The position numbers were made by a program, and so were the translations under genes. From IMG/VR virus record IMGVR_UViG_2850756110_000006: 36,404 nt of DNA; one strand, given 5' to 3'. Below are positions 1 to 35,927 of the stretch, one piece after another. The DNA is from a virus. Taxonomy: Duplodnaviria > Heunggongvirae > Uroviricota > Caudoviricetes. How positions within the stretch are numbered: the first letter of the stretch is position 1; each line of letters starts with the position of its first letter. The notes under the pieces are model-generated. The model made no database searches, was not told the DNA's origin, and worked only from the letters and a program-made list of their open reading frames with translations.

Positions 1-34
1 TTAATTTCGATTATTTTTCCCGTATGGAAAATTC

Positions 35-50
35 TTAGAAACCGATCACA
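35..50 (+). promoter_or_regulatory. Putative CRP site (TTAGA-N6-TCACA) centred about -42 of cyaR, with a TATCAT -10-like hexamer at 72-77
   Basis: Half-site TCACA with 6-bp spacer, positioned as a class II CRP promoter relative to the inferred cyaR start at 85; cyaR is known to be CRP-activated. Confidence 0.4.
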
Positions 51-84
51 TACAGCTGCATTTATTAAGGTTATCATCCGTTTC

Positions 85-171
85 GCTGAAAAACATAACC
101 CATAAAATGCTAGCTGTACCAGGAACCACCTCCTTAGCCTGTGTAATCTCCCTTACACGGGCTTATTTTTT
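85..171 (+). ncRNA. cyaR: CyaR (RyeE) Hfq-dependent sRNA; its 3' terminator region coincides with the prophage att core
   Basis: Sequence GCTGAAAAACATAACCCATAAAATGCTAGCTGTACCAGGAACCACCTCCTTAGCC... matches recalled CyaR including the CCTCCT anti-SD seed, ending in a hairpin plus T-run. Confidence 0.7.
145..171. repeat. P2 att core copy (27 bp), ogr-proximal prophage junction
   Basis: AATCTCCCTTACACGGGCTTATTTTTT is the reverse complement of the P2 att core; identical copy at 35901-35927. Confidence 0.85.
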
Positions 172-233
172 ACGTACAACAAATTGAAATAAAAGGATTT
201 ATTTCTGGTCACGTCCACACATTGACCACATCG

Positions 234-260
234 ACAAAAAAAGCCCCTCGACTGAGGGGC
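234..260 (-). terminator. Rho-independent terminator downstream of ogr
   Basis: Hairpin GCCCCTC-N4-GAGGGGC followed by a T7 run on the minus strand, 14 bp past the ogr stop. Confidence 0.7.
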
Positions 261-273
261 TTCCTGTTTCTAA

Positions 274-492
274 TTACATCCACATAATTTGCTGCCCTGA
301 CGGCAACGGGTGCGGCCTTACTGCGTGGACTTCTCCCGGCTTCACGATGTATCTCTGTACCGACTCATAAGTGATGAACGTGGCGCTGCAATTCACGTTC
401 TGACACTGGTGATAACGCTCTTTTGTCGTGTCAGTGATATAGCGACTTGTACGCGCATGTGCGGCATGCTGGCATAAAGGACAATGAAACAT
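274..492 (-). CDS. ogr: Late gene transcriptional activator Ogr (zinc finger, 72 aa)
   Basis: MFHCPLCQHAAHARTSRYITDTTKERYHQCQNVNCSATF... matches P2 Ogr; ATG at 492 with GGAAGAGG SD; track ORF is a 5' over-extension. Confidence 0.95.
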   Translation of the reverse strand: MFHCPLCQHAAHARTSRYITDTTKERYHQCQNVNCSATFITYESVQRYIVKPGEVHAVRPHPLPSGQQIMWM

Positions 493-572
493 CGCGAGCA
501 CCTCTTCCGGTTTTGTTGATGGTGCCATTTTAGTTAATTTACCCTTATAAAACAAACAGATAAAACAAAACA

Positions 573-1736
573 TCACTCATCATCTTCTGTTTCGTACTCC
601 ACATCAGAAAGCCTGACCTCAAGCTCTAAGGACGTCGTGAAGCCGCTATTATTCAGAAAATGTGTCACCTTAGTGATTGTCCAGTCCTGCTCGTCTATGA
701 CGCGCTTAAAGCCTGATACTTTGACCGGCGTTTCCGTGTAAATATCTGCCCGACCAGTAGCCAGACTGATGGAAAACTCCGCAACGCCCCGTTGCAGCTT
801 ATCCCACTTCGCCTGAGCGGCGCGCATGGCCTGCGCTTTCGTGGCATATACCGTGGTCAGGGCAAAAACGTTGTCAGCCTCACCTGCCATGTATTCACCT
901 TCGCGCGCTTCCGGTACTTTTGGCGTTTTCTTCTGCGTGACCGGTTTCGCTTTCGGGTGCTCCAGTGCGCGCAGGTGTTTCTCTTTCTTTTTGCGTTTCA
1001 GTTTTACCTTCTGCTTTTGTGGCTTCGGGTCTTTGGTGTGTAACCACTTTGCTGTTACGCCGGTATAGGCTCCACGGTCAGCAATCGCAAAATGATGGCG
1101 GTCGCCGTCGCTGCGGGTTATGGTGACCTGCGGGATTTTTTTACCACTGGCCGTCACCCCCTGCCCCGCTTTGAGAAACAACAGTTTTCCCATTTTTACC
1201 GAGACCTCACCGCCGTTGCGTTCTGCAAGACGGGTCAGGAATTTCGCATCAGACTCCTGCGACTGGTCGATGTGCGGGATTTTAATTCCGGCCAGTGACG
1301 GAGCGACACTGGCTTCCAGCCTGTTACGGGAGGCTATCGCCTCAACAATCGCACCGAGCGTGGTGTCATGCCAGGAGCCTTCACGGCGGGAATTGAGCGT
1401 CCCGCGGAAATCTGCACTCCGGGCGCGGATGGTGACCACATCCGGCGCGCCCCGGTGTTCAACCTCATCAACGGTGAATTTCCCTTTGCATACCAGGGCA
1501 AAACCTTTCCAGCCGATATACACCGTCAGGACAGCGCCACGAACCGGCAGCCCGACCTGCCCGTCGGCATCGTTCAGTTCAATATCAAGCTGGTCAGCCT
1601 CAAAGCCCCGGTTATCCGTCAGGGTCATGCTCATCAGACGGTCGCTGATATTGCCGGTAATATCCCTGCTGTCGAGCATCAGCATGTAATCCGGCGTCAG
1701 CGTACTACCTGCATCAAATGTCAGCGCGTCCAGCAT
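573..1736 (-). CDS. D: Tail protein D (387 aa)
   Basis: Length and sequence match P2 gpD; start overlaps U stop (TAATG). Confidence 0.95.
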   Translation of the reverse strand: MLDALTFDAGSTLTPDYMLMLDSRDITGNISDRLMSMTLTDNRGFEADQLDIELNDADGQVGLPVRGAVLTVYIGWKGFALVCKGKFTVDEVEHRGAPDVVTIRARSADFRGTLNSRREGSWHDTTLGAIVEAIASRNRLEASVAPSLAGIKIPHIDQSQESDAKFLTRLAERNGGEVSVKMGKLLFLKAGQGVTASGKKIPQVTITRSDGDRHHFAIADRGAYTGVTAKWLHTKDPKPQKQKVKLKRKKKEKHLRALEHPKAKPVTQKKTPKVPEAREGEYMAGEADNVFALTTVYATKAQAMRAAQAKWDKLQRGVAEFSISLATGRADIYTETPVKVSGFKRVIDEQDWTITKVTHFLNNSGFTTSLELEVRLSDVEYETEDDE

Positions 1737-2215
1737 TATCCCGCCCCCGTCATACCCGTGAATTTAGTCGCCATACTGCCAGCCTTACCGATGAGCGATT
1801 CCGCCTGTTTACCGATATCGCCATAAAGCGCGGCCAGTGATTCATCCACGCGGGTGAGCGACAACGTAAAATCAATTTTCCGGGGTGTGCCGTCTGCAAA
1901 GAAAATACTCCCTGTTTCACTCACCCTGCTGATGACATACATGCCGTAAATCATGCCGGTGCCATCCAGCAACGGCCACGCCCGGCCTTCCTCTGCCATC
2001 AGCCTGAGCGTGGTCATCGTCAGCTTCCCGCCGGTCAGTTCGGGATAAAGCACGCCGGCAAGCGTCATGTTTTCCTCACCCACACCGAGAAACTGAAAGG
2101 CATCCCGTTTACCGATACGGGGATTTGACGGCCAGCGATAATCTGATTCGCGCTGCATGGTCTGGTGTGGCAGCGTCTGGCGCATAAAAACAAACATACC
2201 TAACGCGAGCATCAT
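1736..2215 (-). CDS. U: Tail protein U (159 aa)
   Basis: Matches P2 gpU in sequence and length. Confidence 0.95.
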   Translation of the reverse strand: MMLALGMFVFMRQTLPHQTMQRESDYRWPSNPRIGKRDAFQFLGVGEENMTLAGVLYPELTGGKLTMTTLRLMAEEGRAWPLLDGTGMIYGMYVISRVSETGSIFFADGTPRKIDFTLSLTRVDESLAALYGDIGKQAESLIGKAGSMATKFTGMTGAG

Positions 2216-2229
2216 TTTTCGTCACCTCC

Positions 2230-4677
2230 TTAACCGTCATGCATCATGCTGGCACGGGCGCGCGCACGTTTATCCCGCTCGTATTTTTCGAGCGCATCCT
2301 GTAACTGGCGGTCAGGCTGTGTCCCCGGCGCAGTACCACCCGTCAGGCTGATGTGATATTCGTTTTTACTCTGGTCCACATAAGAGCGGCCAGCCGGTGC
2401 CGTAACCGGCTGATAAGCCTGATAGCCTGCATAAGAGCTGGTCGCCGGAATATAACCACCGGTGCCATACGTGGCGGCATTAGTCCTTGCGGCGGTCTGG
2501 TCAAGTGTGTCTGACTCTTTGTTAATAACACCGAGTTTTTCCAGTACCCAGTCAATACCACTGCGCAGTTTGTTGAACGCATTAAGCGGCAGCATCAACG
2601 CGTCAGCCAGTGCCTGCCCGAACATGACGCCCGTGTCACGGAAACGGTTCAGGGTGTCCTGTGTGGCTTTAACCGGGGCAATCAGGTTTTTAAACCACTG
2701 CCACGCGGCCTGTAACTTTTCGCCCAGCCAGTCAAACACCGGCTTAAGTGGCGTGAACAGTTCCCCCACCGGCGCAAATGCCGCTTTCAGCCCTTCCACC
2801 ACACCGCCAAAGAATGCGCTGACAGGCTCCCAGTATTTACGGATAAGCAACGCCCCGGCGACAATGGCGGCCACCACGGCCACAACCGGCCAGCTAATCG
2901 CTCCAATGGCGGTCATAACAGCACTGCCAACCGTCGTGAAGATTGCCCCCATTGCGCCTGCTGCCGCGATGATGGCATTGATGCCGGTGATAACCGGCCA
3001 GGCTACGAGGCCAATGGCGCCGATGACACCAATCATTGCCAGTGCACCACCGACAATGATGCCGATGGTTGACGCCAGTGATTTGTTTTTCTGGATCCAG
3101 CCGTCGAGTTTTAACACATACTTTGTGGCCGTCTGCGTGAGCTTACGCAGTGCGCCTTCCTGCTGGTCAAACAGGTCAGTCCCCACCGCCTCATAAGCGG
3201 ACTGAAACTCCTTAAAGTCACCGCCGAGGTTGTCCTGCATGATATTTACCAGCTCTGCGGTCTTTCCGTCTGAGGCTTTAAACGCAGCGGTCAGTTTGTC
3301 CAGCTTTCCGGTTGAGGCGGCAGTCATCAGCACGGCGGCGGCTGAACTGGCCTCCTCCCCGAAAATGGTTTTCATGTATTCAGCCTGCTGGGCAGTACCG
3401 AGCCGGTTTTTCTCAAAACTGGCCTGCATTTCTTTCAGAATGGTAAATACTGGTCGGGTGTTTCCCTTACTGTCTGAGGTTTTCACACCAAGCTCTTTGA
3501 GTGCATCCCATGCTTTTCCCGTCGGTGCCTGCAGGCGGCTTAACACGGCACGGCTTCCCGTTCCCGCCATTGAGCCTGTGATTTTTGCATCATGCAGCGC
3601 CCCGACCATTGCGGCGGTTTCTTCAATGCTGACACCGGCATTTTTTGCCACAGGTGCGGCATAGGTCAGCGCATCGCTCATGCCGTCAAAATCGGCGGCG
3701 GTTTTGTTCATCGTCATGGAGAGAACATCCCCGATATGAGCGACCTTATCGTTTGAAAGCTGAAAGGCGGATTTCATCCCCATCAGCAGGGCGGCGTTTT
3801 CTTCCATCGTGCGACGGTTCGCCAGCGCCATATTCAGCGTGACCGGCGTTGCCGCCTGAATGGCATCAACATCCCCACCGGCTTTCGCAATAATAATCTG
3901 CGCACCAGCTGCATCATCTGCCGAGGCTGCGGTATTGTCGCCGAGCTGACGCGCCTGCTTGCGTAGTGCAGCCATTTCGGCGGAGTCTTTTACCACTCCG
4001 AGCACGGCCTGCAATTCTGAGTTTTTCTGCGCAAACTCATAACCGGGCATCAGCAGCTTAACTCCGGCCATCGTTCCCGCCGCCGCAATCCCCACACCGG
4101 CAGCGCCCACCGAGGCCATATTTCCGGCCAGTTCCTTTCCGGCCTGATAACGCTGTTTTACTGCGTTAAGTTTTGCCTGTTGTGCACTGACACGCGCCAG
4201 CGCGTCGCGCTGACGGTTAAGCTGTGCGGTGGTTTCACTGATACGGTTTTTCAGTCCCTGCTCATCATGTGCAAGATTGCGGGTATTAATTCCCACAGCG
4301 GCCAGTTCCCGCTGCTGGCGTTTAACGGAATCTGTCAGGCGGTTATATTTCGCCTGTAAGTCCTCCGCCGCACGCTTTGCGGATTCCAGCACTTTCGCCT
4401 GAGCACGGGTCGGACGTTCGGTGTTTTTAAACTGTGTGGCAAGGGCTTCGGCCTCCTGCCGTGCCTTTTCAAGTGCATGACCAGTCACGGCGAGCTGTGC
4501 ACTGGTCTTGCGGAATCCCTCAATACGGGATGCCTGACCGTTCAGCTCGCGCAGTGATTTTTGTGTTTCCCGGATATCCCCCGACAGCGATTTGCTCGCT
4601 GTGCGGATGGATTTAAACGGGCGGGATGCCTGGTCAACAGCCCTGAGCAATACCTGTAATTTTACATTGTTACTCAT
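2230..4677 (-). CDS. T: Tail tape measure protein T (815 aa)
   Basis: 815 aa, hydrophobic Gly/Ala-rich central region, P2 gpT position and length; ATG overlaps E' stop. Confidence 0.95.
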   Translation of the reverse strand: MSNNVKLQVLLRAVDQASRPFKSIRTASKSLSGDIRETQKSLRELNGQASRIEGFRKTSAQLAVTGHALEKARQEAEALATQFKNTERPTRAQAKVLESAKRAAEDLQAKYNRLTDSVKRQQRELAAVGINTRNLAHDEQGLKNRISETTAQLNRQRDALARVSAQQAKLNAVKQRYQAGKELAGNMASVGAAGVGIAAAGTMAGVKLLMPGYEFAQKNSELQAVLGVVKDSAEMAALRKQARQLGDNTAASADDAAGAQIIIAKAGGDVDAIQAATPVTLNMALANRRTMEENAALLMGMKSAFQLSNDKVAHIGDVLSMTMNKTAADFDGMSDALTYAAPVAKNAGVSIEETAAMVGALHDAKITGSMAGTGSRAVLSRLQAPTGKAWDALKELGVKTSDSKGNTRPVFTILKEMQASFEKNRLGTAQQAEYMKTIFGEEASSAAAVLMTAASTGKLDKLTAAFKASDGKTAELVNIMQDNLGGDFKEFQSAYEAVGTDLFDQQEGALRKLTQTATKYVLKLDGWIQKNKSLASTIGIIVGGALAMIGVIGAIGLVAWPVITGINAIIAAAGAMGAIFTTVGSAVMTAIGAISWPVVAVVAAIVAGALLIRKYWEPVSAFFGGVVEGLKAAFAPVGELFTPLKPVFDWLGEKLQAAWQWFKNLIAPVKATQDTLNRFRDTGVMFGQALADALMLPLNAFNKLRSGIDWVLEKLGVINKESDTLDQTAARTNAATYGTGGYIPATSSYAGYQAYQPVTAPAGRSYVDQSKNEYHISLTGGTAPGTQPDRQLQDALEKYERDKRARARASMMHDG

Positions 4678-5097
4678 TCGTGTTTCCGCTTCGCCGGAGC
4701 GCCTTTTCGCGCCATGTGATGAGTTCGGTCAGGCTCATGGGATACAGTTCTGATGGCGGCCAGTGAAATATCACTGCCACATCCGCCATCAGGTCATCGA
4801 CCGAGAGATTTTTCGGAAACGTCACTGCACCGAGTTCGGCGACAAAAAACCGACCACCTTACCGGCCAGCGCCACAAGGTCAGGCAGTTCCAGCGCGGCG
4901 ACTTCCTGCTCGGTCAGCATCGGTGCCGTCATGCGCGGCAGCACCTTAATCAGTGCATCGACTTCAGAGTTCGCGACCGCAGCCAGACTGACACCGCGCA
5001 GCGTCCCGGCACTGGGTTTCATCAGCGTGACCTGTTCGATGACCTGCTCACCACGCTTGACCGGATTGTCCAGGGTAATCACATTTTCTTTGTTCAT
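4670..5097 (-). CDS. E+E': E+E' frameshift-extended tail chaperone (-1 frameshift at TTTTTTG, + coordinates 4843-4849)
   Basis: Hand translation of the -1 frame after the T6G heptamer gives VAELGAVTFPKNLSVDDLMADVAVIFHWPPSELYPMSLTELITWREKALRRSGNTNE, stop TAA at 4670-4672 overlapping the T start. Confidence 0.85.
4822..5097 (-). CDS. E: Tail assembly chaperone E (91 aa)
   Basis: Matches P2 gpE; ends ...GFLSPNSVQ. Confidence 0.95.
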   Translation of the reverse strand: MNKENVITLDNPVKRGEQVIEQVTLMKPSAGTLRGVSLAAVANSEVDALIKVLPRMTAPMLTEQEVAALELPDLVALAGKVVGFLSPNSVQ

Positions 5098-5154
5098 GGT
5101 TTTCTCACTTCTGAATCGGGGGTTAACCGGTCAGCCTGGCTGACCGGATGAAAA

Positions 5155-5673
5155 TCACAGGCCGATATTGCGGCGGTGTTGCTCCAGCCGGTCGACGCCG
5201 TTCACCTTCTCAATCATGTTGATGGTGTCGATTTCGACCAGCTCCTTACCGTCCATCGTCAGCCGGAAATAGGTGCAGACCACGGAGATTTTCGACTCGG
5301 TGTCTTCTCCCTGTTTACCCTCGCCGGTGTCGATTTCTTTCTGACGTCCACGCATGACCACCTCGACGGCCACCGTTTCGCCGGTATCGTCGCGCTGGTA
5401 AGAGCCTGCAAAACGAATCGGCACGGCATCCACACCGGTTGCGGCGTAAAGCTCCCAGATAACCGAATCCGGGAAGCCCCCGAGCGACCACTCCATTGAC
5501 AGCGCATCGTCATCAAGGCCGAGGTCTACCGGTGCGCTGCCGTTCATCCCCGCACCTCGATAGTTTTCGAGCTTACGGGTCAGTTTTGGCAGCGTGACGG
5601 ACTTTGCAACGCCCTGATAGCTGTAGCCGTTCAGAAAGACGTTCATTAACTTGAGTTTGCGCGGCATTGCCAT
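5155..5673 (-). CDS. FII: Tail tube protein FII (172 aa)
   Basis: Matches P2 gpFII in sequence and length. Confidence 0.95.
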   Translation of the reverse strand: MAMPRKLKLMNVFLNGYSYQGVAKSVTLPKLTRKLENYRGAGMNGSAPVDLGLDDDALSMEWSLGGFPDSVIWELYAATGVDAVPIRFAGSYQRDDTGETVAVEVVMRGRQKEIDTGEGKQGEDTESKISVVCTYFRLTMDGKELVEIDTINMIEKVNGVDRLEQHRRNIGL

Positions 5674-5685
5674 CGGTCAGGCTCC

Positions 5686-6876
5686 TTAATTGCTGTTAAC
5701 CGAGGTGACCAGATTTGCCAGGTATTTATCGGTGATACGCTGGCGCAGGGTCAGGTTTTCAAGAGGAGGCACCGGGGTATAGTCGTAGTCGATATACAGT
5801 TTTCCGGCCTTGAGGGTTTCCGCATCGTTGGATTCTTCGCTAAACCAGCAGGTCGCATCCACGATATAGCCGTTTGTTTTCAGCTCACGGAATTTGGCAT
5901 TGATGCCGTCAACGATGTCACGAATCAGCGTTGCGGTGATGGGCTTGTCCACCGCCCACATGTGCGCCTCAGCCATCGTGTCGGCCAGTACCTGTGCGGT
6001 GCGGGTGTAGTTTTCAAAGAGGAACAGCGGGTCATCAGAGCAGGTACGGTTACCCCAGAAGCGGAAACCGTCACGGCGAATCAGTGTTGTGACGCCTGAC
6101 TCGTTAAGCAGGTCAGCATCGGTGCCGGACTCCTGCAAATCCCAGAATACAGATGCGCTGATGCCGGTAACACCGTTCACCCCGACGTTGGACAGCGTTT
6201 TATGCCAGCCCTGCTCCTGGTCGATTTTGGCACGCAGACCCAGCGCACGGGCGGTAGCATACGCGGTGGCGGTGGTACTGGTGACCGTATCCCATGCGAG
6301 GAAATCCGGCCAGATGACCATCAGCTCACGCTGGCTGAAATTCTGGCGGTAAGCTTTCACCTCGGAAATGGTTTTACAGCCCCATGCGCTGATATACCCG
6401 AAAGCGCGCAACTTCTGACAGACTGATGCCAGTGCAACAGCCACCTCTTTGGTATCCAGTCCCGGTACGCCGAGAATACGCGGTTTAACACCGGTTACCG
6501 ACTCCGCCGCCAGCAGGGCTTTCAGTCCGGTGTACTGACCGTTTTCGTCGGTGGTGCCGATGATATTGGAAACGGTCTGCGCGAGTTTCGTTTCTTCGTC
6601 GTCGCCGGTGCCGTCTTCCACGCGCACAACAACGGTGACCGGTTTTGACTGGTCAGCGATGGCCTGCAACGATGCCGCCAGCGTGCCTTTTTTACCGGCC
6701 TTTGCAATTGCGCTCTGCACATTGGTAATCAGCACCGGTTTATTGAGGGGGAAGGTTTCCGCATCCGCATCGCTGGCCGTGCAGACCATGCCGACAATGG
6801 CGGTGGATACGGTTGAAATGACGCGGGTGCCGTCGTTAATCTCCAGCACCTGCACGCCGTGATGATAGTCACTCAT
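5686..6876 (-). CDS. FI: Tail sheath protein FI (396 aa)
   Basis: Matches P2 gpFI in sequence and length. Confidence 0.95.
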   Translation of the reverse strand: MSDYHHGVQVLEINDGTRVISTVSTAIVGMVCTASDADAETFPLNKPVLITNVQSAIAKAGKKGTLAASLQAIADQSKPVTVVVRVEDGTGDDEETKLAQTVSNIIGTTDENGQYTGLKALLAAESVTGVKPRILGVPGLDTKEVAVALASVCQKLRAFGYISAWGCKTISEVKAYRQNFSQRELMVIWPDFLAWDTVTSTTATAYATARALGLRAKIDQEQGWHKTLSNVGVNGVTGISASVFWDLQESGTDADLLNESGVTTLIRRDGFRFWGNRTCSDDPLFLFENYTRTAQVLADTMAEAHMWAVDKPITATLIRDIVDGINAKFRELKTNGYIVDATCWFSEESNDAETLKAGKLYIDYDYTPVPPLENLTLRQRITDKYLANLVTSVNSN

Positions 6877-6986
6877 CCGTTTAACTCCGTGGTTAATGGG
6901 TGCAACTATTTTCTGTTGTACAGAGCATGAGACGCTATTTGATCTGTCTGGTCAGTGGATGAAACAACAGATACAGAAAAGGCGGG
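6877..6986 (-). promoter_or_regulatory. Presumed late promoter region for the FI-FII-E-T-U-D operon (P_F), now abutting the IS2 end
   Basis: Position upstream of FI as in P2; no convincing Ogr-site consensus could be verified by eye. Confidence 0.3.
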
Positions 6987-6997
6987 TGGATTTGCCC

Positions 6998-7903
6998 CTA
7001 TATTTCCAGACATCTGTTATCACTTAACCCATTACAAGCCCGCTGCCGCAGATATTCCCGTGGCGAGCGATAACCCAGCGCACTATGCGGATGCCATTCG
7101 TTATAATGCTCGAACGCCTCTGCAAGGTTCTTTGCTGCCGTTAACCCGTCTGGTTTGGGCATGATACTGATGTAGTCACGCTTTATCGTTTTCACGAAGC
7201 TCTCTGCTATTCCGTTACTCTCCGGACTCCGCACCGCCGTGTTCTTCGGTTCAAGTCCCAACATCCGGGCGAACTGGCGTGTTTCATTAGCCCGGTAGCA
7301 TGAACCATTATCCGTCAGCCACTCCACTGGAGACGACGGAAGATCGTTGCCGAAGCGGCGTTCCACCGCTCCCAGCATGACGTCCTGTACTGTTTCACTG
7401 TTGAAGCCGCCGGTAGTCACCGCCCAGTGCAGTGCCTCACGATCACAGCAGTCCAGCGCGAACGTGACACGCAGTCTCTCTCCGTTATCACAGCAGAACT
7501 CGAACCCGTCAGAGCACCATCGCTGATTGCTTTCTTTCACGGCCACTCTGCCTGTATGTGCCCGTTTCGATGGCGGTACAGCAGGTTTTCGCTCAAGCAA
7601 CAGCGCATTCTGGCGCATGATCCGGTAAACACGTTTGGCATTGATCGCAGGCATACCATCAAGTTCTGCCTGTCTGCGAAGCAGCGCCCATACCCGACGA
7701 TAACCATACGTGGGCAGCTCTCCGATAACATGGTGTATACGGAGAAGCACATCCGTATCATCAGTGTGACGACTGCGGCGGCCATCCATCCAGTCATCGG
7801 TTCGTCTGAGAATGACGTGCAACTGCGCACGCGACACCCGGAGACAACGGCTGACTAAGCTTACTCCCCATCCCCGGGCAATAAGGGCGCGTGCGCTATC
7901 CAC
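6998..7903 (-). CDS. insD: IS2 transposase OrfB (InsD, 301 aa)
   Basis: [34 protein letters not shown]... matches IS2 InsD; integrase-like core. Confidence 0.9.
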
Positions 7904-8226
7904 TTTTTTGCCCGTCCATATTCAACGGCTTCTTTGAGGAGTTCATTTTCCATCGTTTTCTTGCCGAGCAGGCGCTGGAGTTCTTTAATCTGCTTCATGG
8001 CGGCAGCAAGTTCAGAGGCAGGAACAACCTGTTCTCCGGCGGCCACAGCAGTAAGACTTCCTTCCTGGTATTGCTTACGCCAGAGAAATAACTGGCTGGC
8101 TGCTACACCATGTTGCCGGGCAACGAGGGAGACCGTCATCCCCGGTTCAAAGCTCTGCTGAACAATTGCGATCTTTTCCTGTGTGGTACGCCGTCTGCGT
8201 TTCTCCGGCCCTAAGACATCAATCAT
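7861..8226 (-). CDS. insC: IS2 OrfA (InsC, 121 aa); an A6G slippery site at + coordinates 7904-7910 would fuse it to InsD
   Basis: [41 protein letters not shown]... matches IS2 InsC; CAAAAAAG on the minus strand just upstream of the insD ATG. Confidence 0.9.
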
Positions 8227-8399
8227 CTGTACTCCAATGACTAGTCTAAAAACTAGTATTAAGACTATCACTTATTTAAGTGATACTGGTTGTCTGGAGA
8301 TTCAGGGGGCCAGTCTAACGGGCAATTCGCCCGCCTGTCCTAGTTTGTACTCACTCATTTTCCGACTGACAATTTACATAGCCAAAACGCTATCAAATC

Positions 8400-8433
8400 T
8401 GACAGTCTGCTTTGAGCGAAAAGCAGACTGTCA
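8400..8433. repeat. Perfect palindrome (14-bp stem, 6-nt loop), motif copy A of a three-member family
   Basis: TGACAGTCTGCTTT-GAGCGA-AAAGCAGACTGTCA read directly; no adjacent T-run. Confidence 0.7.
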
Positions 8434-8548
8434 CGCGTTGAAGTTAATTGTATTACTTAGATAAACACTATCATTTTCCTGACGTTAAGTTGTATCTTTG
8501 ATAGGATTAAAAAACGTATAGATAGCTTATGCTACTGAGGGAATAAAA

Positions 8549-9358
8549 ATGACGAAAATTAGTGAACGATGGAAGCACAATGGCATTACTGAAGGTTATT
8601 GCAATATTTGTGGGAAATATGGCTTGCTCACAAAAGATCATGTTCCTCCAAAGTGCGCCATAACCTTAGGCCCTGTTTTGCAGAAAACAGTTAGCGAATT
8701 TTTTGGTATTCAGGAACCAGTTAAACCATTAAATGCTAAAAATGGCTCTTATTTCAGAACCATTTGCAGCCACTGTAACAATAAGGTATTAGGTGGGCTC
8801 GATGTTGCAATTGAAAATGTAACAAAGTCCTTTAAAGAACAGTTAAGTCGATATATGAATGGTATGAATGTATATCCATTCATTAGAATACCTTTTGATA
8901 GCATATCTTTCACTAAGGCTATGATTGGGCACGTGCTATCAGCAACTTCAGTTGAAGATTGTAAAAAAGAACCCGTAGATAGCCCCTTCTATACACCTTT
9001 AAAGGATTATGTTTTGGGTAAAAATTCAAGTTTTGAGGAAACTCATGATATTTACTACTGGTTTTACCCACACAGAATGCACATATCCGCTCAAAGTGTA
9101 GCATTTATGAACGAAGGACATGTGGCATTTATTTGTGCTTTACATTTTTTTCCTATCGGTTTTATTATCACAATGAAAAATGAAGGAACATACCCTGCCC
9201 ACTCTACAAAATTAGAACTTGAAGATAAATTCCTTACATTTAATATGACCTCTATAAATTATGAGTATACGACATTTCCATTTGTAAATCTTAAGGGAAA
9301 CCAAATGTATGCGATAAGCAACGGTCATACTTGTGTGAGTTATCCAATAATTAAGTGA
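8549..9358 (+). CDS. AT-rich accessory protein (269 aa) with N-terminal HNH/His-Me-finger-like motif (CxxC...DHVPP...CSHCNNK) and an unrecognised C-terminal domain
   Basis: Intact ORF with GAGGGA SD 7 nt before the ATG; C18-x2-C21, D30-H31, C-x2-C-N-N-K spacing resembles HNH nucleases; base composition far more AT-rich than flanking phage genes. Confidence 0.75.
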   Translation: MTKISERWKHNGITEGYCNICGKYGLLTKDHVPPKCAITLGPVLQKTVSEFFGIQEPVKPLNAKNGSYFRTICSHCNNKVLGGLDVAIENVTKSFKEQLSRYMNGMNVYPFIRIPFDSISFTKAMIGHVLSATSVEDCKKEPVDSPFYTPLKDYVLGKNSSFEETHDIYYWFYPHRMHISAQSVAFMNEGHVAFICALHFFPIGFIITMKNEGTYPAHSTKLELEDKFLTFNMTSINYEYTTFPFVNLKGNQMYAISNGHTCVSYPIIK

Positions 9359-10776: not shown

Positions 10777-10839
10777 TCTGCATTCCCTCATATTGCAGCC
10801 GGGATAAATAAATGCCGCCTCTGTGGCGGCATGTTGCTG

Positions 10840-12840
10840 TTAACGAACCAGATGCAGGAAGTGCAGGTGTTTTTCGTACTGGTCCAGTATGTCATTAATC
10901 AGCTGTTCCTGATTCCAGCCCATTACATCATAATTTTGGCCGCCCTCTTTGAGATAGACTTCAGCGCGATAATATCGATGTTGTTCACTCTGCTGCTCAT
11001 CATTATCCAGCGCAGCGAGCGCGAAGGTCGGTGAGTTATACCCGCGAAGCCTCACTTCATATATATAATTCAGCTCGTTGCCCAAATCGACTTCAAGGCG
11101 AATACGATCCTCGGCGGCGTCACTGATGTGGCTTATCGTTCCCTGCTTGTTAAGTTCCTCCTGAACCAGCGTCATGGCGGGTTGGATAATGTCGTCCATA
11201 AAACGTTTCACAAGAGAGCGCTTCGGCAAATACGCGATATTGCGTAACCTTCTCTGCCAGGGAATTGGGTTACGTGCAGCCGTAGGAGCAATAGTCGCCA
11301 TGCTAAGGCTTTCACGCTTGGTCAAATCCCGACGCAGGGCTTTTAACAGTCCGTATATGGATATTAATAAGATAACTGAGAAGGGCAATGCACTCGCTAT
11401 CGTTACGGTTTGCAACGCACTCAGCCCCCTGCGATCAGCAGGGCAATAGCAACAACGCCCATGAGCAATGCCCAGAAAATTCGCTGCCAGACGGGCGTGT
11501 TTGCCACCCCACCTGATGCCAGAGTATCCACAACCATTGCCCCGAATCAGCAGACGTTACAAAGAAGACGATGACCATCGCCATTGCAATGAATGACAGC
11601 ACGGAAGAGAACGGGAAATGCTCCAGGAAATTAAACAGGGCAAGCGCAACATCCTGCTGAACGGTATTGGCGAGGTCAGTGGCGCCCTGGTTCATGATGA
11701 GATAGATGGCGCTGTTTCCAAACACCGTCATCCACATGAGCGTAAAGCCGGCGGGAACAAACAACACGCCAGTCACGAACTCACGAATTGTCCTGCCGCG
11801 GGAAACGCGTGCAATGAACATACCTACAAACGGCGACCATGAAAGCCACCATCCCCAGTATAATAATGTCCAGCCCCCAGCCAGTTGCTCGACTTGGGTT
11901 CATACGCGTAAAGGTTGAACGTTTTACTCACCAGTTCCGACAGATAACCACCCGTATTTTCCACAAATGACTTCAGCAGAAGCACAGTGGGACCCAGGCA
12001 CAAGACCAGCGCCAGGAGCAACACCGCCAGGCCCAGATTAAGCTCAGACAGGATGCGTATTCCCTTGTCCAGGCCGGACACCACCGAAATCGTCGCTAAC
12101 CCCGTGATGACCACGATCAAAATGACCTGTACCGTTTCATTGATGGGCACGCCGAAAAGATGGTTCAAACCGGCATTCACCTGCAATACACCGTAACCCA
12201 GCGATGTTGCAACGCCAAAGACAGTGCCTATCACGGCGAAGATATCAACCGCGTGGCCTATAGGCCCGTAAATGCGATCGCCGATAATGGGATAGAGCGC
12301 AGAACGCAGCGTTAAAGGCAGACCGTGACGGTAACTGAAAAAGGCCAGAATCAGCGCCACGATGGCATAAATTGCCCATGCGTGCAGACCCCAGTGGAAG
12401 AACGTCAGGCGCATGGCTTCCTTCGCTGCCGCAACGGTCTCTGGAGTGCCGACAGGTGGCGAAAGATAATGCATCACAGGTTCGGCAACGCCAAAGAACA
12501 TCAGGCCGATCCCCATCCCTGCCGAAAAAAGCATCGCGAACCAGGAGTGGTAGCTGAAATCAGGCTGCGCATGGTCTGGGCCCAGCTTTATATCACCGTA
12601 ACGTGAGAGTCCAAGGAACGTGACGCTCAGTAAAATCAGGGCCACAGCAAGTATGTAGAACCAGCTGGCATTCGTGAAGATTTGTTGCTGAAGTAGTTTA
12701 AAATTTTTGTCGGCGACATCCGGGAATACGGCGGCAAAGGCGACAAGAAGGAAAATTAGCAAAGCAGATGTAAAGAATACCGCTTTGTTAACCTGGCTTG
12801 TAGACTTCTTTGGGGTTGTATCATTTTCACTCATAATCAT
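10840..12840 (-). pseudogene. BCCT-family (BetT-like) betaine/choline transporter gene broken by at least three frameshifts
   Basis: Fragments 11824-12840, 11435-11821 and 10840-11415 carry consecutive BCCT segments, including [32 protein letters not shown] recovered only by switching frame near 11880; further shifts near 11510 and 11425. Confidence 0.8.
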
Positions 12841-17223: not shown

Positions 17224-17571
17224 TCAACTCACAGGGATGGTTAACGAAAGTGGCTGGCCGGTGTCGTTGTGCTGACCGGTTAACGTGACCGTCATTCGCC
17301 CGTCAAAACTGCGCGCCGTGGTGACGGATGACAGGGTGACGCGGGGTTCCCATTTCAGCACTGCCATGTAACAGGCGACCTTAATCTGCAACTCAAGCGC
17401 CGGGGTCTGCGGCTGGTCAATCATTGATGCCAGCAACGAGCCGTAATCACGACGCATCACCCGTGAGCCGACCGGTGTGCGCAGGATATCGCCGATACTC
17501 TGGCTGATATGCTCAAGGTCAGTGACCGTCAGGCCATCACTGCGATTCATTCCGAGATAACGCGCTGTCAT
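17224..17571 (-). CDS. W: Baseplate protein W (115 aa)
   Basis: Matches P2 gpW. Confidence 0.95.
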   Translation of the reverse strand: MTARYLGMNRSDGLTVTDLEHISQSIGDILRTPVGSRVMRRDYGSLLASMIDQPQTPALELQIKVACYMAVLKWEPRVTLSSVTTARSFDGRMTVTLTGQHNDTGQPLSLTIPVS

Positions 17572-18197
17572 AGAGGACTCCCGGTTGTGCCGCCGCTGTC
17601 GCCGGGGTGTTTATGGGTATGCAGTACCTTCCCGTTTGATGAAAGTTCACCGCCGGTGTGTTCAATGTTGCCGCGCATCGTCCCGCCCTTCTGCACTTCC
17701 AGCGTGCCGGTAATCAGCTTGTTGGTGCAGACCACCTCCGGTGTGTCCAGGGTGACGCGGGTTGATGCTTTCACCATGACCACCGGCACCGTGGCAGTAA
17801 CAGAATCAGAAGCCGTCACGCTGGCCGTTTTAATTCCGCTTACCGTGAGTGCACTGGTTTCAGGTTCATACTCAATCACCGCCCCGTCAGGGAAACGGAT
17901 ATGCAGGGCATCCGCCGACGCCGACGGCGCGGGGTTATCGCCGGAATAAATCCCCGGCAGAACGAACGCCGTGTCGAGTTCACCGCCCACGGCCAGAATC
18001 AGCACCTGTTCCCCCACGGAAGGTGCCCACCATGTGCGCGAACGACCGGCGCGATGGGTCAGCCACTGAAGCCAGTCGGTGCACATGCCGCCGGTCTGCA
18101 CACGGCAGCGACCGGCATTAAGGTCGGTTTCGACGATAATGCCAGTGCGAATCATATTGCGTATAAAGCGAAGAATTTCATTGTATTGTGCATTCAT
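17568..18197 (-). CDS. V: Baseplate spike protein V (about 210 aa); N-terminal ~15 residues differ from P2
   Basis: From ...RNMIRTGIIVETDLNAGRCRVQTGG onward matches P2 gpV; ATG at 18197, the track ORF starts at an upstream TTG. Confidence 0.9.
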   Translation of the reverse strand: MNAQYNEILRFIRNMIRTGIIVETDLNAGRCRVQTGGMCTDWLQWLTHRAGRSRTWWAPSVGEQVLILAVGGELDTAFVLPGIYSGDNPAPSASADALHIRFPDGAVIEYEPETSALTVSGIKTASVTASDSVTATVPVVMVKASTRVTLDTPEVVCTNKLITGTLEVQKGGTMRGNIEHTGGELSSNGKVLHTHKHPGDSGGTTGSPL

Positions 18198-18283: not shown

Positions 18284-18949
18284 ATGAGTACTTACTTTTT
18301 CTCGTCAGAAACAATGAAAGAATTGTTCAAAGATTATCTGGTCTTTTTGAACACGCTGACTCCCGGCACAAACTTTGAATCAAGCAGAAACAAAATAATT
18401 GCTCAAGCAATAAACTTCATTTCCGAAAACCCTGAAGATTGGGACAAAAAATCCCAGTACAACATTGCTATGATTGGCGACACCTTTAAAAGTTTCTTAA
18501 GAGAAAAGGGAGAAGATAACAACAGCATCAACCTTATATTCACTTGCTTTTTTAGATTTATCATTGAACCAAGCATTCTCTCTCCGGAAATAGAGTCTCA
18601 CTTTTCACCACTAAGAACCATCAAGGATTTTGCTCTGTATAACTATAATGAATTCGATGAGCGGAGCAGAGCACAGATAGACTTTTCTCTTAGAGAACTG
18701 CCATTAGCAATGGTTAAAGAAGTTTTAAGCTCCAGCAATGTTGACACATATAAAAAATACATTGATAGTTTAAACGAAGGGCGTCAATTTTTCGAAAAGT
18801 GCGACTCCTTCTTAAAGGAGCAACATGCCAAAATAGAGTCAATCAAAGAGTCATTAAAAGGGTATGAGGTCGCATTTAATTTTGTTGGATTGTTTGAAGG
18901 CTTTAATTCACTTGGCAAAAAGAAAGTGAAATCATGCTATCAAGAATAA
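18284..18949 (+). CDS. Hypothetical protein (221 aa), first gene of an AT-rich cassette inserted between V and S
   Basis: Intact ORF with AAGGGA SD-like sequence upstream of the ATG at 18284; strongly AT-rich; no recognisable motif; the track start at 18188 lies inside V and is rejected. Confidence 0.65.
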   Translation: MSTYFFSSETMKELFKDYLVFLNTLTPGTNFESSRNKIIAQAINFISENPEDWDKKSQYNIAMIGDTFKSFLREKGEDNNSINLIFTCFFRFIIEPSILSPEIESHFSPLRTIKDFALYNYNEFDERSRAQIDFSLRELPLAMVKEVLSSSNVDTYKKYIDSLNEGRQFFEKCDSFLKEQHAKIESIKESLKGYEVAFNFVGLFEGFNSLGKKKVKSCYQE

Positions 18950-19353
18950 TTCTTATCATCTTGGCTATAATCATTCCCTCCCCGCTGATATACTATGGAA
19001 TGCATAAATTACCAGCTCTCGAAACGACAAATGCTGCCACATATTTTATGTCAGCACTACCTTTTGCATCAGTTACATTGATTTTCATGTATTACTTTAG
19101 AGTTGTACTGCTAAATCATATATCGTTACGAACTCAGATTATGCAAATAGAACTCAGAAAGAGCCTTTGTCAGTTCATTCAGAGTTATAGCGACTATTCC
19201 TCAGAGATAAGGAAAAACAATCCGGAAGCGCTTTCAAAATTCGAAGACGTAGTATTTTCAAACATCATGCTATCCGATGATAAGATACCATCTACATTTG
19301 ATGGCATTGAGCAAATAGCATCGTTAATCAATTCATTAAAAAATGGAAAGTAA
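18934..19353 (+). CDS. Small membrane protein (139 aa, two predicted N-terminal TM helices), overlapping the preceding gene by 16 nt
   Basis: ATG at 18934 overlaps the upstream stop at 18947-18949; hydrophobic MLSRIILIILAIIIPSPLIYYG and YFMSALPFASVTLIFMYYFRVVLL. Confidence 0.65.
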   Translation: MLSRIILIILAIIIPSPLIYYGMHKLPALETTNAATYFMSALPFASVTLIFMYYFRVVLLNHISLRTQIMQIELRKSLCQFIQSYSDYSSEIRKNNPEALSKFEDVVFSNIMLSDDKIPSTFDGIEQIASLINSLKNGK

Positions 19354-28830: not shown

Positions 28831-29045
28831 CGCCCGCTTTATGGGTCGGTTTTAATGCAGGTGCACGAATACACCGGAGGCGCGCCGGCACTGGTGGCGC
28901 TCAGACGCAACAGGGGAGGAAAACGCATGCAATTGAATGCATTTCTAGGCACACCTAAAAATGAAAAAATGTTATGACAATTAATCATTTTAAACACACT
29001 GATTAAGGGTAGAATTCTCCTAGTAAAATCATAGAAAAACCGCTA

Positions 29046-29974
29046 TCAAACCAGGCTTTTGCCTTGCTTCATTTTTTTAGATGAGTCTAAAAATTTGAAA
29101 TTATCATTAGATGAAAATATTCTTTCTGCGGTATGCCGAATGACTGAAGTATTGAAGACCGCAGCCTGCTCCTCATTACAACTGAATACACCCTCATGAC
29201 CATCAAACTCGCCCGCCAAAAGAAGGTTTTTTGATACTGGGAACAAAACTAAAGTGTCTTTTACACCAAACCCGGGGAATAAGGGCCTCGTGCTAATTCA
29301 GGATTAGTCCACATTAAGCAAACTGGGTTATCTGAAGTTATAAATGACCCTTGCCCATCAGATATGGTCATAAGTGACCAGTTGCGTTGATGCAACAACT
29401 TGGTGATAACAGGTACACATTTCATTTCCATATCTATCATGAACTCTCTGATTACATTGATTTCGAAATTATCCCCATCCACAAAATTTTTAATTTTTTC
29501 GTAAGCGAGATCATATGGCAAAGACTCACCCATTTCTTTCTCATAAGCTAATTTGCAATCGTCCCAACGCTCAGCCGAACTAACTGAGGATTTCATGATA
29601 AACTTTGCTATTTGTTTCAATGGAGATGATAAATGTTCTCGCTGAGCAGGCGTACGTATTGCCAATAAGGAAATAAACTCCAGAATAACATCTTTGGTTT
29701 CGCCTGAAAACTCGCCCCCTCCTCAAGTTTTCTTAAATGAGTAGCGACACTGCCTTCAAACTCTGCAAGAGAACTCTCGAGATAGTTTGGGTCAACTCCA
29801 TCCAATTCTAATCGGTTGAAATCTCTAACCCCCCCCGACATTGCGAGTATTACTCTCAAAGGTTTTGCGCTCCTTTAAATCTATTACAGTTAATTTTGAT
29901 TTTTTCCCCCCATTACTTGTAAACCCTTTCAAATAACATTGGGATAAAAAATGATGATGCCTTGCAACACTCAT
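29046..29974 (-). pseudogene. AT-rich DUF4238-like gene at the tin/old position, split into four frame-shifted fragments
   Basis: N-terminus MSVARHHHFLSQCYLKGFTS resembles the DUF4238 HxxPQFYLKxF motif (from memory); frame breaks at a G8/C8 run (29829-29836), near 29617-29665 and near 29246-29261. Confidence 0.65.
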
Positions 29975-30077
29975 ACTCAGCTCCGTTATGGCTATAATCG
30001 CATAAATAATAAGCACTTATATTGCAATCATCTAGTTAAATACACAATATTTATGACTCCGAAATTTCATTAAATCA

Positions 30078-32249
30078 CTATTGATAGGTTTTACCAATTA
30101 GTGCCAGCTCGAAATGGATGCGTGGAATCTGCGAACGTTCAGCCTTTGTCATCCGCCCTGATGGCGCTATCTGGTACGGTTTTAATGGTTCGCAGTTTCT
30201 TTGTTGCCAATTCGGTCTCGGTGCACCATGTTTTAATGCACTCCTGAGCACCGTCACAACTTCCGGGTCATCCCATCCGATAACACCACTATCAACCAGA
30301 TTTAACACCGCTGCGGCATGCTCAGACGGTGTAGGGTGCATAACCGGAACGTCACCGCCGGTGAACTTTCCACAGTTATTGACAGGACTCCGAGGCGCGG
30401 CGATGCCGCTTTTTAAAGTCAAAGGCTCAACGACCGGCACTTTCGGCACAATGCGCCAGTCCGTCGTTCTGGTGATATGAATATGACGCGCGCCGAGATG
30501 CGGCGCGTAAATGCCGACCACTCTCTCGACTTCTTCCTCGTACTCGTTAACTTCATCCGACGGGCTACGGGCGACCCTGACAGTCTGACAATCGCGCGGG
30601 ACATTTGCCCCACCCTGCGCGCTGATATACAACGCAAAATCACCACTGTCTGCGGCGGCGCGAGCAGCCTCGACGCGCTCGTCAAACTCATCAGCAATGC
30701 TGACGCCGCGCGGCAATTTGCGTAGTTCACGGTAAGCCCCCATTGTCGGCAGACCAACCGTTTTAAATTGTGGGATGCGCCACGTTGACGCCCATGCGGT
30801 AACAGCCGCGGCAGTATCTTTAAGCGGCTTACCGGTATCGTTATCGAGCTGACCATCCAGTGCATAGCCGTCGATATTTTTTGAGATGTATTTCGCGATA
30901 TACCCCGCAGCACCGCCCCGGTTAAGGTGTTTCGCCTGAAAACGGTTTCGCGCAGCTCCTCTTTCGTCGCCATCCTCTTTGAGCGCATAGCGACGCATGA
31001 TTTCGATAATCTGGTTACGCTGGCGCGGATTACAAAAAAGCATCATATGCCAGTGCGGCGTTCCGTCGTGGTGTGGCTCGACGACACGCAAACCGTAGAC
31101 CTGTAAATCATTATCCTTGAATGCCGTGCGCATCAGGCTCCAGATACGGCAGAGATAACGCTGCGCATCCTTTGGATTAAATGCCTCATCGTTCCAGCCG
31201 TGATTTAGCTGGACGGTTTTACTTTCGCCTTTTCTGACCTGACGTGTCGGGTGATACTTTGACGGCGCGGTCAGCGTGATAAACATCCCCACATCACCCT
31301 CTGCTGCGGCGTAACGCTCAATACCGGCAATGGTGTTCATCAGCTCCATCCGGCGAATTTCAGGATTAGAAATACTGCCCATCACCTTACTGATAAGGTC
31401 GATGCGCTCGCCGGTTTCCCTGTTTTCAAGGTCACATGATTTAAGAAATTCCAGATTTGCCTGGCGGCGCGCACGCACATCACGAATGGCATGTTTACTG
31501 GCATAAGGAGAACGGTCTTTATTGACCTCCCCGACAGCTATCAGTAACGCCTCATGCCAGCGCATACGCTGGCCTTTAAGCTGATGAGTCCACCACTCAT
31601 CGTTAAACAGGCGGGCAATGGCAGAATATGCCTGCCTCGTGGTCATCTGTCCTTTACGGTATTTTTTCCAGTAGAGCGGGGAAATATTGAAAGCACGTGC
31701 AGCGCCAGCAACATGACCATAAAGGTGAGCCTGCGCCTCATCCGTAAACAGCGATTCTTTTTCGCCATGTGCATCAACCCAGGCATCGCAGAGTTCCTCA
31801 TACATCATGAAAAGCTGCGATGAGATACGGGCAGCAAACTTTTTCAGCTCCTTGTCATTCATTCCCGGCAGGCGCGCATAGTGGTCACGCTCTGCCAGAA
31901 ACAGCAACGACGCGTCGGTGTTCATTTCATGGCGCTGATTCACACGCTCAATGCGCGGCCATAAACGACGCTGAAAAGTGGATGTGAGGAAATAAAACCC
32001 GTGCACCGGGCTTTTATTGCGCCGGATGTAGTCATAACGTGAAGTAAACAGCGAGCGCAAAAAGTAAGGCAGGCGGTTAATCGTGGATAAAACACCTTGC
32101 ACCTGACGCATCTCGTCACGTGTAAGGGGTCTTTCGCGCCCGACAGCCTCGCGTGGCGCGTTCCATGCATAAGCACCGGTAAACGTCTTACCGGTGCCTG
32201 CGGCAAATGCTGACGGAGGGACAAAACGCCCGGAGGCTTTAACGGCCAT
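30078..32249 (-). CDS. A: Replication initiation protein A (rolling-circle nickase, about 723 aa)
   Basis: MAVKASGRFVPPSAFAAGTGK... matches P2 gpA; HHDGTPHWHMML HUH-like motif and YIAKYISK tyrosines; track ORF starts at an upstream TTG. Confidence 0.9.
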   Translation of the reverse strand: MAVKASGRFVPPSAFAAGTGKTFTGAYAWNAPREAVGRERPLTRDEMRQVQGVLSTINRLPYFLRSLFTSRYDYIRRNKSPVHGFYFLTSTFQRRLWPRIERVNQRHEMNTDASLLFLAERDHYARLPGMNDKELKKFAARISSQLFMMYEELCDAWVDAHGEKESLFTDEAQAHLYGHVAGAARAFNISPLYWKKYRKGQMTTRQAYSAIARLFNDEWWTHQLKGQRMRWHEALLIAVGEVNKDRSPYASKHAIRDVRARRQANLEFLKSCDLENRETGERIDLISKVMGSISNPEIRRMELMNTIAGIERYAAAEGDVGMFITLTAPSKYHPTRQVRKGESKTVQLNHGWNDEAFNPKDAQRYLCRIWSLMRTAFKDNDLQVYGLRVVEPHHDGTPHWHMMLFCNPRQRNQIIEIMRRYALKEDGDERGAARNRFQAKHLNRGGAAGYIAKYISKNIDGYALDGQLDNDTGKPLKDTAAAVTAWASTWRIPQFKTVGLPTMGAYRELRKLPRGVSIADEFDERVEAARAAADSGDFALYISAQGGANVPRDCQTVRVARSPSDEVNEYEEEVERVVGIYAPHLGARHIHITRTTDWRIVPKVPVVEPLTLKSGIAAPRSPVNNCGKFTGGDVPVMHPTPSEHAAAVLNLVDSGVIGWDDPEVVTVLRSALKHGAPRPNWQQRNCEPLKPYQIAPSGRMTKAERSQIPRIHFELALIGKTYQ

Positions 32250-35900: not shown

Positions 35901-35927
35901 AATCTCCCTTACACGGGCTTATTTTTT
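35901..35927. repeat. P2 att core copy (27 bp), int-proximal prophage junction
   Basis: Exact direct repeat of 145-171. Confidence 0.85.

Follow-up and report, generated by a model that had tools for sequence, protein, structure and literature searches.

We analyzed a 36,404-nt window, by which we mean the whole stretch of DNA under study, and found that it carries a P2-like prophage (Peduovirus), recognizable by genes in the order of P2, by proteins of the P2 type, and by a repeated 27-bp att core. The att core, AATCTCCCTTACACGGGCTTATTTTTT, occurs at 145-171 and again at 35901-35927, giving a prophage of 35,756 bp, including one insertion sequence of the IS2 type. E. coli S10 harbors this P2-like prophage too, likewise between yegQ and yegR in its chromosome, with 99.96% identity to the window over positions 1-6986 and 99.4% over 8319-28864. 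Ogr and all structural, lysis, replication, and regulatory proteins retain their full length, with 94-100% identity to those of the S10 prophage, and ogr itself (277-492) is 100% identical to OgrK of E. coli S10. FI, encoding the tail sheath, is the first gene of the F operon and occupies 5686..6876 on the minus strand (ATG at 6876), its product matching that of the IS-free prophage at 100% identity. On the other side of IS2, the nearest gene upstream of FI is a cargo gene of 269 aa (8549..9358, plus strand), which points away from FI and gave no match in Pfam or PADLOC; its start codon is 231 bp from IS2. Two other cargo genes in the same prophage, a BCCT gene and a 347-aa gene, are frameshifted.

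The element between this cargo gene and FI is a complete 1331-bp copy of IS2 (6987..8317, minus strand), the sole IS2 in the window, with IRR at the 6987 end facing FI and IRL at the 8317 end. Its termini read TGGATTTGCCCC... at 6987 (IRR) and ...GGGGGCCAGTCTA at 8317 (IRL). Assignment to IS2 follows from the length of 1331 bp, from the terminal inverted repeats (IRL TAGACTGGCCCCC... and IRR ...GGGGCAAATCCA), and from an orfA (HTH) and an orfB (DDE/rve) that overlap at an A6G programmed -1 frameshift window (AAAAAAG, 7903..7909, minus strand), a feature of IS2 that has been described previously (PMC3299598). The first of these genes, orfA (insC; 7861..8226, minus strand), encodes 121 aa with an HTH_Tnp_1 domain and is also called in locus L170, and the second, orfB (insD; 6998..7903, minus strand), encodes 301 aa with HTH_21, rve, and rve_3 domains and has its stop codon 11 nt from the IS end. 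The window copy is 100% identical to many E. coli copies annotated 'IS3-like element IS2 family transposase', and this identity suggests that it is presumably active. The initial annotation had drawn the feature at 6976-8330, which corresponds to IS2 plus a few flanking bases on each side, and had described IS2 as reading toward FI, in agreement with our finding that orfA, the A6G site, orfB, and FI all lie on the minus strand.

The element is flanked by the pentamers GCGGG on the IRR side (6982..6986) and ACGGG on the IRL side (8318..8322), which match at four of five bases, the single difference having already been pointed out in the initial annotation. Removal of IS2 together with the ACGGG copy yields ...CAGAAAAGGCGGGCAATTCGCCCGCCTGTCC..., and a reconstruction query of 800 nt, made by joining 400 nt of each flank in this manner, was 100% identical to the IS-free alleles of E. 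coli S10, Res13-Lact-ER01-35, and d1-58. The empty site reads AAAAGGCGGGCAATTCGCCCGCC; therefore, the target pentamer was GCGGG, which equals the IRR-side copy, and the IRL-adjacent copy carries a G-to-A change, the same base being found in L170. Alignments of S10 with the two sides of the window overlap by 4 bases, CGGG, and comparison with the empty site confirms a duplication of 5 bp, or of 4 bp with one foreign base added. Five IS2 copies inspected by hand all had perfect 5-bp duplications, as did 54 copies in two surveys covering 30 informative and 42 distinct complete IS2 copies. Approximately 19 copies in the same surveys lay between unrelated flanks, a sign of recombination among IS2 copies, and irregular duplications were seen at L129 (one mismatch, central in the duplication), L186 (C replaced by GT adjoining IRL), and L127 (an extra TG adjoining IRR). 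The simplest account of the mismatch in the window is a G-to-A point mutation, or an error made during repair at the IRL junction. IS2 minicircles carry a spacer of 1 bp (90% of cases) or 2 bp that derives from the IRL flank of the donor (PMC3299598), and a retained spacer base from the minicircle junction would give just such an IS-adjacent irregularity; with so few cases, this is at most suggestive. The irregular duplication offers a small lead on IS2 junction repair.

In the IS-free allele, the minus strand reads AGGCGGGCGAATTGCCCGCCT followed by TTTCTGTATC, that is, a G+C-rich stem-loop with a U tract immediately after it on the transcribed strand. A terminator pattern scan called this hairpin with 9 pairs, 7 of them G-C, ahead of TTTCTGTATC, and its fold of -21.3 kcal/mol (z = -4.67) was matched by none of 200 shuffles. 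It occupies the 3' end of a transcription unit, lying after gene G or downstream of cargo. The initial annotation had reconstructed such a hairpin and T-rich tract on the minus strand by removing IS2 and had proposed a comparison with an IS-free allele; exact IS-free alleles exist and carry the reconstructed hairpin, so that the structure is real. The observation that IS2 sits inside the stem of a predicted terminator upstream of the tail sheath operon is likewise confirmed.

We fetched 80 loci encoding FI relatives from IMG/VR, which provided approximately 60 distinct P2-family upstream regions, and most of these possessed the hairpin and T tract at the same position. The T tract always follows the hairpin on the late-gene strand, and more distant relatives (L083, L085, L086, and L082) display different hairpin sequences with T tracts at the same place, exemplified by L083, in which AACGGGCC-CC-GGCCCGTT precedes eight T. 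Such constancy of place and hairpin-plus-T-tract architecture among different stems is hard to reconcile with the notion that the palindrome is not a terminator and instead represents a protein-binding or recombination site at the right border of the cargo slot that IS2 has disrupted, a reading that we regard as highly improbable, even though in cargo-bearing relatives many kinds of cargo module end just to the left of the hairpin, between it and gene G. The weak covariation could also be taken in its favor: 91.6% of cells pair, compared with 39-62% in slid controls, with only one double-sided change, and shuffle controls were not exceeded. The formal covariation test of the hairpin did not reach significance, as the sequences vary too little; most single changes, however, are compatible with G-U pairing, and L012 holds a compensatory pair, GACGGGC/GCCCGTC. 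The P2 reference, for its part, annotates a different putative rho-independent V-operon terminator right after G (NC_001895, 15639-15666), a further point for that reading, but in cargo-less relatives the hairpin itself begins 5-6 nt past the TAA that ends gene G (tail-fibre assembly) and is the only hairpin after G there.

Because of this placement directly behind the G stop codon, we assign the hairpin to the end of the V-G late operon, and the case for a terminator is built on positional conservation and architecture rather than on covariation statistics. The comparative data support a predicted rho-independent terminator that would end both the tail-fibre (V-G) late operon and the cargo slot, immediately before PF, the late promoter of the F operon, and agree with the initial suggestion that the hairpin is a plausible terminator of the V..G/cargo transcript, its position being kept among relatives. 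They further identify the hairpin as the putative ancestral terminus of the V-G operon of P2, just in front of which the cargo modules were inserted. In the window, the 269-aa gene is divergent from FI, and the transcripts that the terminator could stop are therefore putatively read-through from DUF2254/BCCT or antisense RNA. The hairpin nevertheless appears dispensable, since it is degraded in the P2 reference (GGTGAGC/GCCCGCC, -11.3 kcal/mol, z -0.08) and entirely absent from one class of relatives, those with an invertase gene upstream of FI. Upstream of the terminator, the conserved backbone also includes a second inverted repeat (8401..8432) with a 13-14-bp stem, GACAGTCTGCTTT...AAAGCAGACTGTC, and a weak T tract, only the right half of which is conserved in P2 and most relatives. 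A conserved segment of approximately 95 nt upstream of the hairpin was considered as a structured RNA and rejected, given an RNAalifold covariation term of only -0.23 and no Rfam matches.

The consequences of the insertion for the terminator can be read at both ends of IS2. The pentamer that was duplicated belongs to the 3' arm of the hairpin, and the stem and T tract now lie 1.3 kb apart. At the IRL side, a distal remnant (8318..8336, minus strand) retains the 5' arm (AGGCGGGC) and the GAATT loop as well as a duplicated 3' arm (GCCCGU), in the form GGCGGGC-GAATT-GCCCGU, which can still fold (fold of 8290-8350, minus strand), with IS2 next to it in place of the U tract. At the IRR side, a proximal remnant (6973..6986, minus strand) consists of a partial 3' arm, CCCGCC, and the T tract TTTTCTGT, without a 5' arm. 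A minus-strand terminator scan of the IS2-bearing window from 6600 to 8700 found none. With a hairpin left on the IRL side and the T tract on the IRR side, the predicted intrinsic terminator is, judging from its sequence, abolished by IS2. A new hairpin formed by the inner IRR and the flank was considered as a replacement terminator and was not credible (z -1.86, no U tract).

The promoter that lies between IS2 and FI escaped the insertion. We recognized PF by a TGT-N12-ACA-type partial dyad near -55, by homology to the P2 start and -10, and by the presence of ogr, using the P2 annotation of NC_001895 (pF activator site at 17555-17583, F-operon start at 17626-17628, FI at 17652). On the minus strand of the window, the equivalent of the activator (Ogr/delta) binding site of P2 pF, placed by homology to this annotation, is intact at 6944..6972 and contains a TGT-N12-CCA dyad (6966-6949) that spans -65 to -48 and whose motif is conserved in relatives. 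The consensus of P2 late promoters is TGT-N12-ACA (PMC3931495), and P2 pF itself has the same TGT-N12-CCA form as the window. Homology to P2 further places a -10-like hexamer, GAAAAT, at 6913-6908 and a probable transcription start, CAC, at 6902-6900 (near 6901), and a GGAG ribosome-binding site mapped from the P2 reference lies at 6888-6885. The IS end is located at approximately -86 relative to the PF start, 14 bp upstream of the activator site, and 110 nt upstream of the FI ATG. The predicted PF activator site, -10-like hexamer, and start site, as well as every phage gene, are intact, and Ogr-dependent expression of the tail genes should therefore persist, which makes loss of PF function unlikely.

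The close approach of the insertion to the activator site nonetheless raises the question of whether IS2 has crippled a decaying prophage, either because the displaced upstream DNA lowers PF activation or because the added 1.34 kb exceeds the packaging limit. The prophage measures 35,756 bp compared with 33,593 bp for P2, and the frameshifts already present in the BCCT and 347-aa cargo genes suggest a host lineage that accumulates lesions. Set against this are the untouched annotated activator site, -10, and start site, the full length of every structural, lysis, replication, and regulatory protein, and the occurrence of relatives with unrelated sequence upstream of PF, such as the end of an invertase gene, from which we infer that PF functions independently of its upstream context. 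Moreover, an IS-carrying P2-like phage of 37.2 kb is viable (PMC3091744). Taken together, a crippled prophage seems quite unlikely.

The initial annotation had also proposed that IS2 could alter termination and late FI-FII expression. The first part stands, in that the terminator is lost, whereas a change in expression did not find support, since PF is intact and no junction promoter is present. Altered FI/FII expression, as predicted from this arrangement, is possible but unsupported, and the expression consequence of the insertion is probably small. In its strongest form, the proposal would be that the lost terminator, together with transposase read-out or a hybrid promoter, renders FI-D expression constitutive or raised in the lysogen. 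The orientation of IS2 toward FI would favor this, as would the end of orfB 11 nt short of the IS boundary: a transcript would run through just 122 untranslated nt before the FI ATG, and no minus-strand intrinsic terminator lies between the two genes. In IS2, the -35 of the promoter formed at the minicircle junction lies within IRR (PMC3299598), and IS2 fusion promoters have been documented at ampC, acrEF, and neoR (PMC9330008, PMC3299598). However, a promoter scan of the junction between IRR and the flank found none, and no combination spanning it reached 8/12. The hexamers located 15-19 nt past the TGGAAA of IRR (ACCCGC, CCCGCC, CCGCCT, CGCCTT, and GCCTTT) match TATAAT at only 0-1 of 6 positions, and a hybrid promoter at this junction was rejected for want of a usable -10 at 16-18 bp from the outward -35. 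Read-out from within the element is similarly disfavored, as the IS2 promoter PIRL is weak and repressed by OrfA (PMC3299598), and the 150-bp right end of IS2 proved devoid of detectable promoter activity in a reporter study, which used it for that reason (PMC12095673). Promoters located more than approximately 150 bp deep in an IS3-family element likewise gave no detectable output (PMC12095673). We accordingly consider raised or constitutive tail-operon expression unlikely.

A more elaborate possibility concerns ogr, the next gene downstream of FI-D, which in P2 we take to be co-transcribed with the F operon. The hairpin beside PF would, on this view, act as an insulator that shields FI-D and ogr from transcripts made in the lysogen. 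The scan called no intrinsic terminator between D and ogr. Bursts of IS2 transposase transcription could then leak through FI-D into ogr past the lost insulator hairpin, and the little Ogr so produced might activate the late genes partially and feed back positively on its own synthesis; we judge this chain of events to be very unlikely.

The distribution of the insertion bears on its age. None of 5,426 complete E. coli genomes carried the same insertion, nor did IMG/VR or the JGI metagenomes. An exact look-up of the tape-measure protein allele returned five contigs, among them two places that carry the insertion. CP026805.1 matches the window at 100% identity along 9,677 bp that take in both IS2 and the duplication mismatch; a Logan contig likewise has the insertion at its end with 100% identity, stopping 28 nt into IRR at this junction. 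Megablast alignments extending 4-25 nt past IS2 into the flanks were considered as shared junctions and discarded as chance matches among approximately 24,000 IS2 places. The narrow distribution and the identity of the IS copy to other IS2 copies indicate a recent insertion in a narrow lineage comprising CP026805.1 and at least one read-based assembly.

Considering these observations jointly, we favor with reasonable confidence the explanation that a recent IS2 insertion in a narrow lineage has destroyed a conserved PF-proximal terminator while sparing PF and the phage genes, and that it is neutral to mildly deleterious. A complete IS2 has inserted into the 3' arm of the conserved predicted rho-independent terminator of a P2-like prophage, which normally would end the V-G late operon together with the adjoining cargo slot, just before the Ogr-dependent PF of FI-FII-E-T-U-D. 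The 5-bp target duplication has stranded a hairpin without its U tract at IRL and the U tract with a partial 3' arm at IRR. IS2 is classically polar, as known from the older literature, and since upstream transcription would have to cross 1.3 kb of this element, the insulation of PF is probably largely retained. The weak, OrfA-repressed PIRL may send a little transcription through IRR into FI, because no intrinsic terminator remains between them. The net effect would most likely consist of approximately 4% of extra genome length and the loss of a non-essential terminator.

The insertion is of little importance beyond this lineage. It does, however, provide a clean natural example of an IS within a conserved prophage regulatory hairpin that spares an adjacent activator-dependent promoter, and the IS-free alleles, in E. 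coli S10 and others, constitute a ready isogenic comparison for the insulation of the tail operon and ogr from cargo transcription. Recognition of the hairpin as the end of the V-G operon should be useful for annotating P2-family prophages.

Nothing at this locus falls outside known kinds: IS2, its target duplication, its polarity, and its hybrid promoters are textbook matters, the late promoters of P2 have been mapped, and the case is in this sense ordinary. The polar gal insertions and the ampC hybrid promoter (Jaurin and Normark 1983) involve the same element with the same ends, and in the documented hybrid-promoter cases IRR faces the downstream gene, as it does here (PMC9330008). Unlike in those cases, no -10 is found at 16-18 bp from the IRR -35, and the promoter downstream, which depends on an activator, has been spared; since the insertion lies upstream of that promoter and not inside the operon, polarity in the classical sense does not apply to FI. 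The V-operon terminator annotated in P2 has the same role, ending late or cargo transcription before PF, whereas the hairpin hit in the window is a second one that adjoins pF and is unannotated and degraded in P2. The closest phage precedent is the viable P2-like Burkholderia phage KS5, whose ISBmu23 resembles the window IS2 in being intergenic beside the tail operon, in disrupting no ORF, and in having a 5-bp duplication (PMC3091744); it differs in being IS4-like, in lying between a cargo gene and D, and in that no regulatory element was reported to be hit. Among E. coli, the P2-like prophages of ST130 and GN03139/GN03551 carry IS2 in the G-FI interval in the same orientation toward FI. In ST130 the element lies 163 nt upstream of FI with the perfect duplication TCAGG, and in GN03139 it lies inside a cargo ORF with the perfect duplication CAAGC, the terminator not being hit in either.

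The ~95-nt backbone segment at 8336-8432 (CGCTCAAAGCAGACTGTCAGATTTGATAGC...TTGTCAGTCGGAAAATGAGTGAGTACAAA), which lies ~100 nt upstream of the hairpin (the terminator upstream of FI that IS2 splits in the window) in the fetched loci L009-L077, was conserved among P2-like elements carrying unrelated cargo. It returned no Rfam match, and covariation within it was not convincing. In the window prophage, the left end of this segment forms a hairpin of 13-14 bp (8401-8432), with a folding energy of -24.6 kcal/mol and a z-score of -4.9. A weak sigma-70-like match, ATGATA-16-TACAAT (9/12), was located nearby on the minus strand at 8447-8474, oriented toward the hairpins and the tail sheath gene FI, and the IS-free allele carries it too. 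Shuffled sequence yielded matches this good equally often.

Our comparison with the IS-free copy of the prophage in E. coli S10 revealed damage in two cargo genes. The gene encoding a BCCT-family transporter (10843-12834, minus strand) has been split into three or more reading-frame fragments in the window, whereas its S10 counterpart is intact at 665 aa, and the final 212 residues share just 93% identity with S10. A palindromic terminator-like hairpin (ATGCCGCC...GGCGGCAT) occupies 10812-10832, between this pseudogene and the DUF2254 gene; a search for a terminator on the minus strand after DUF2254 detected none. The second damaged gene, a hypothetical cargo gene of 347 aa between S and V (18314-19350, plus strand), carries a frameshift near 18916-18925 and is intact in S10.

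No alignment to S10 was obtained for the segment at 28864-30247, where S10 has an ATP-dependent nuclease gene, and the C-terminal end of the neighboring replication endonuclease, A, was unlike that of S10 as well. Within this segment, an ORF of 134 aa (29264-29665) matched the PADLOC model DUF4238-Pers (E 1e-92) while covering only positions 104-236 of the 309 in the model, and is a truncated candidate defence gene. The prophage resides between yegQ and yegR, and both of its borders are marked by a 27-bp direct repeat, AATCTCCCTTACACGGGCTTATTTTTT, at 145-171 and 35901-35927, which constitutes the att core.

IS2 has also inserted independently between G and FI in the P2-like prophages of E. coli ST130 (2953-4283 of locus L003) and GN03139 (3720-5050 of locus L004); both copies have perfect duplications, and both are oriented toward FI, as is the copy in the window; this uniform orientation (three of three) was not significant. 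Irregular junctions were displayed by two further IS2 copies, L186 and L127, drawn from IMG/VR and E. coli ECMA0423. In L186 (...CCATC[IS2]GTCATC...), the first duplicated base adjoining IRL, the left end of IS2, is replaced by GT, and in L127 (...TCCGC-TG[IS2]TCCGC...), an additional TG adjoins the right end, IRR. The irregularities in these two copies are the same size as the 1-2-bp spacer of the IS2 minicircle junction.
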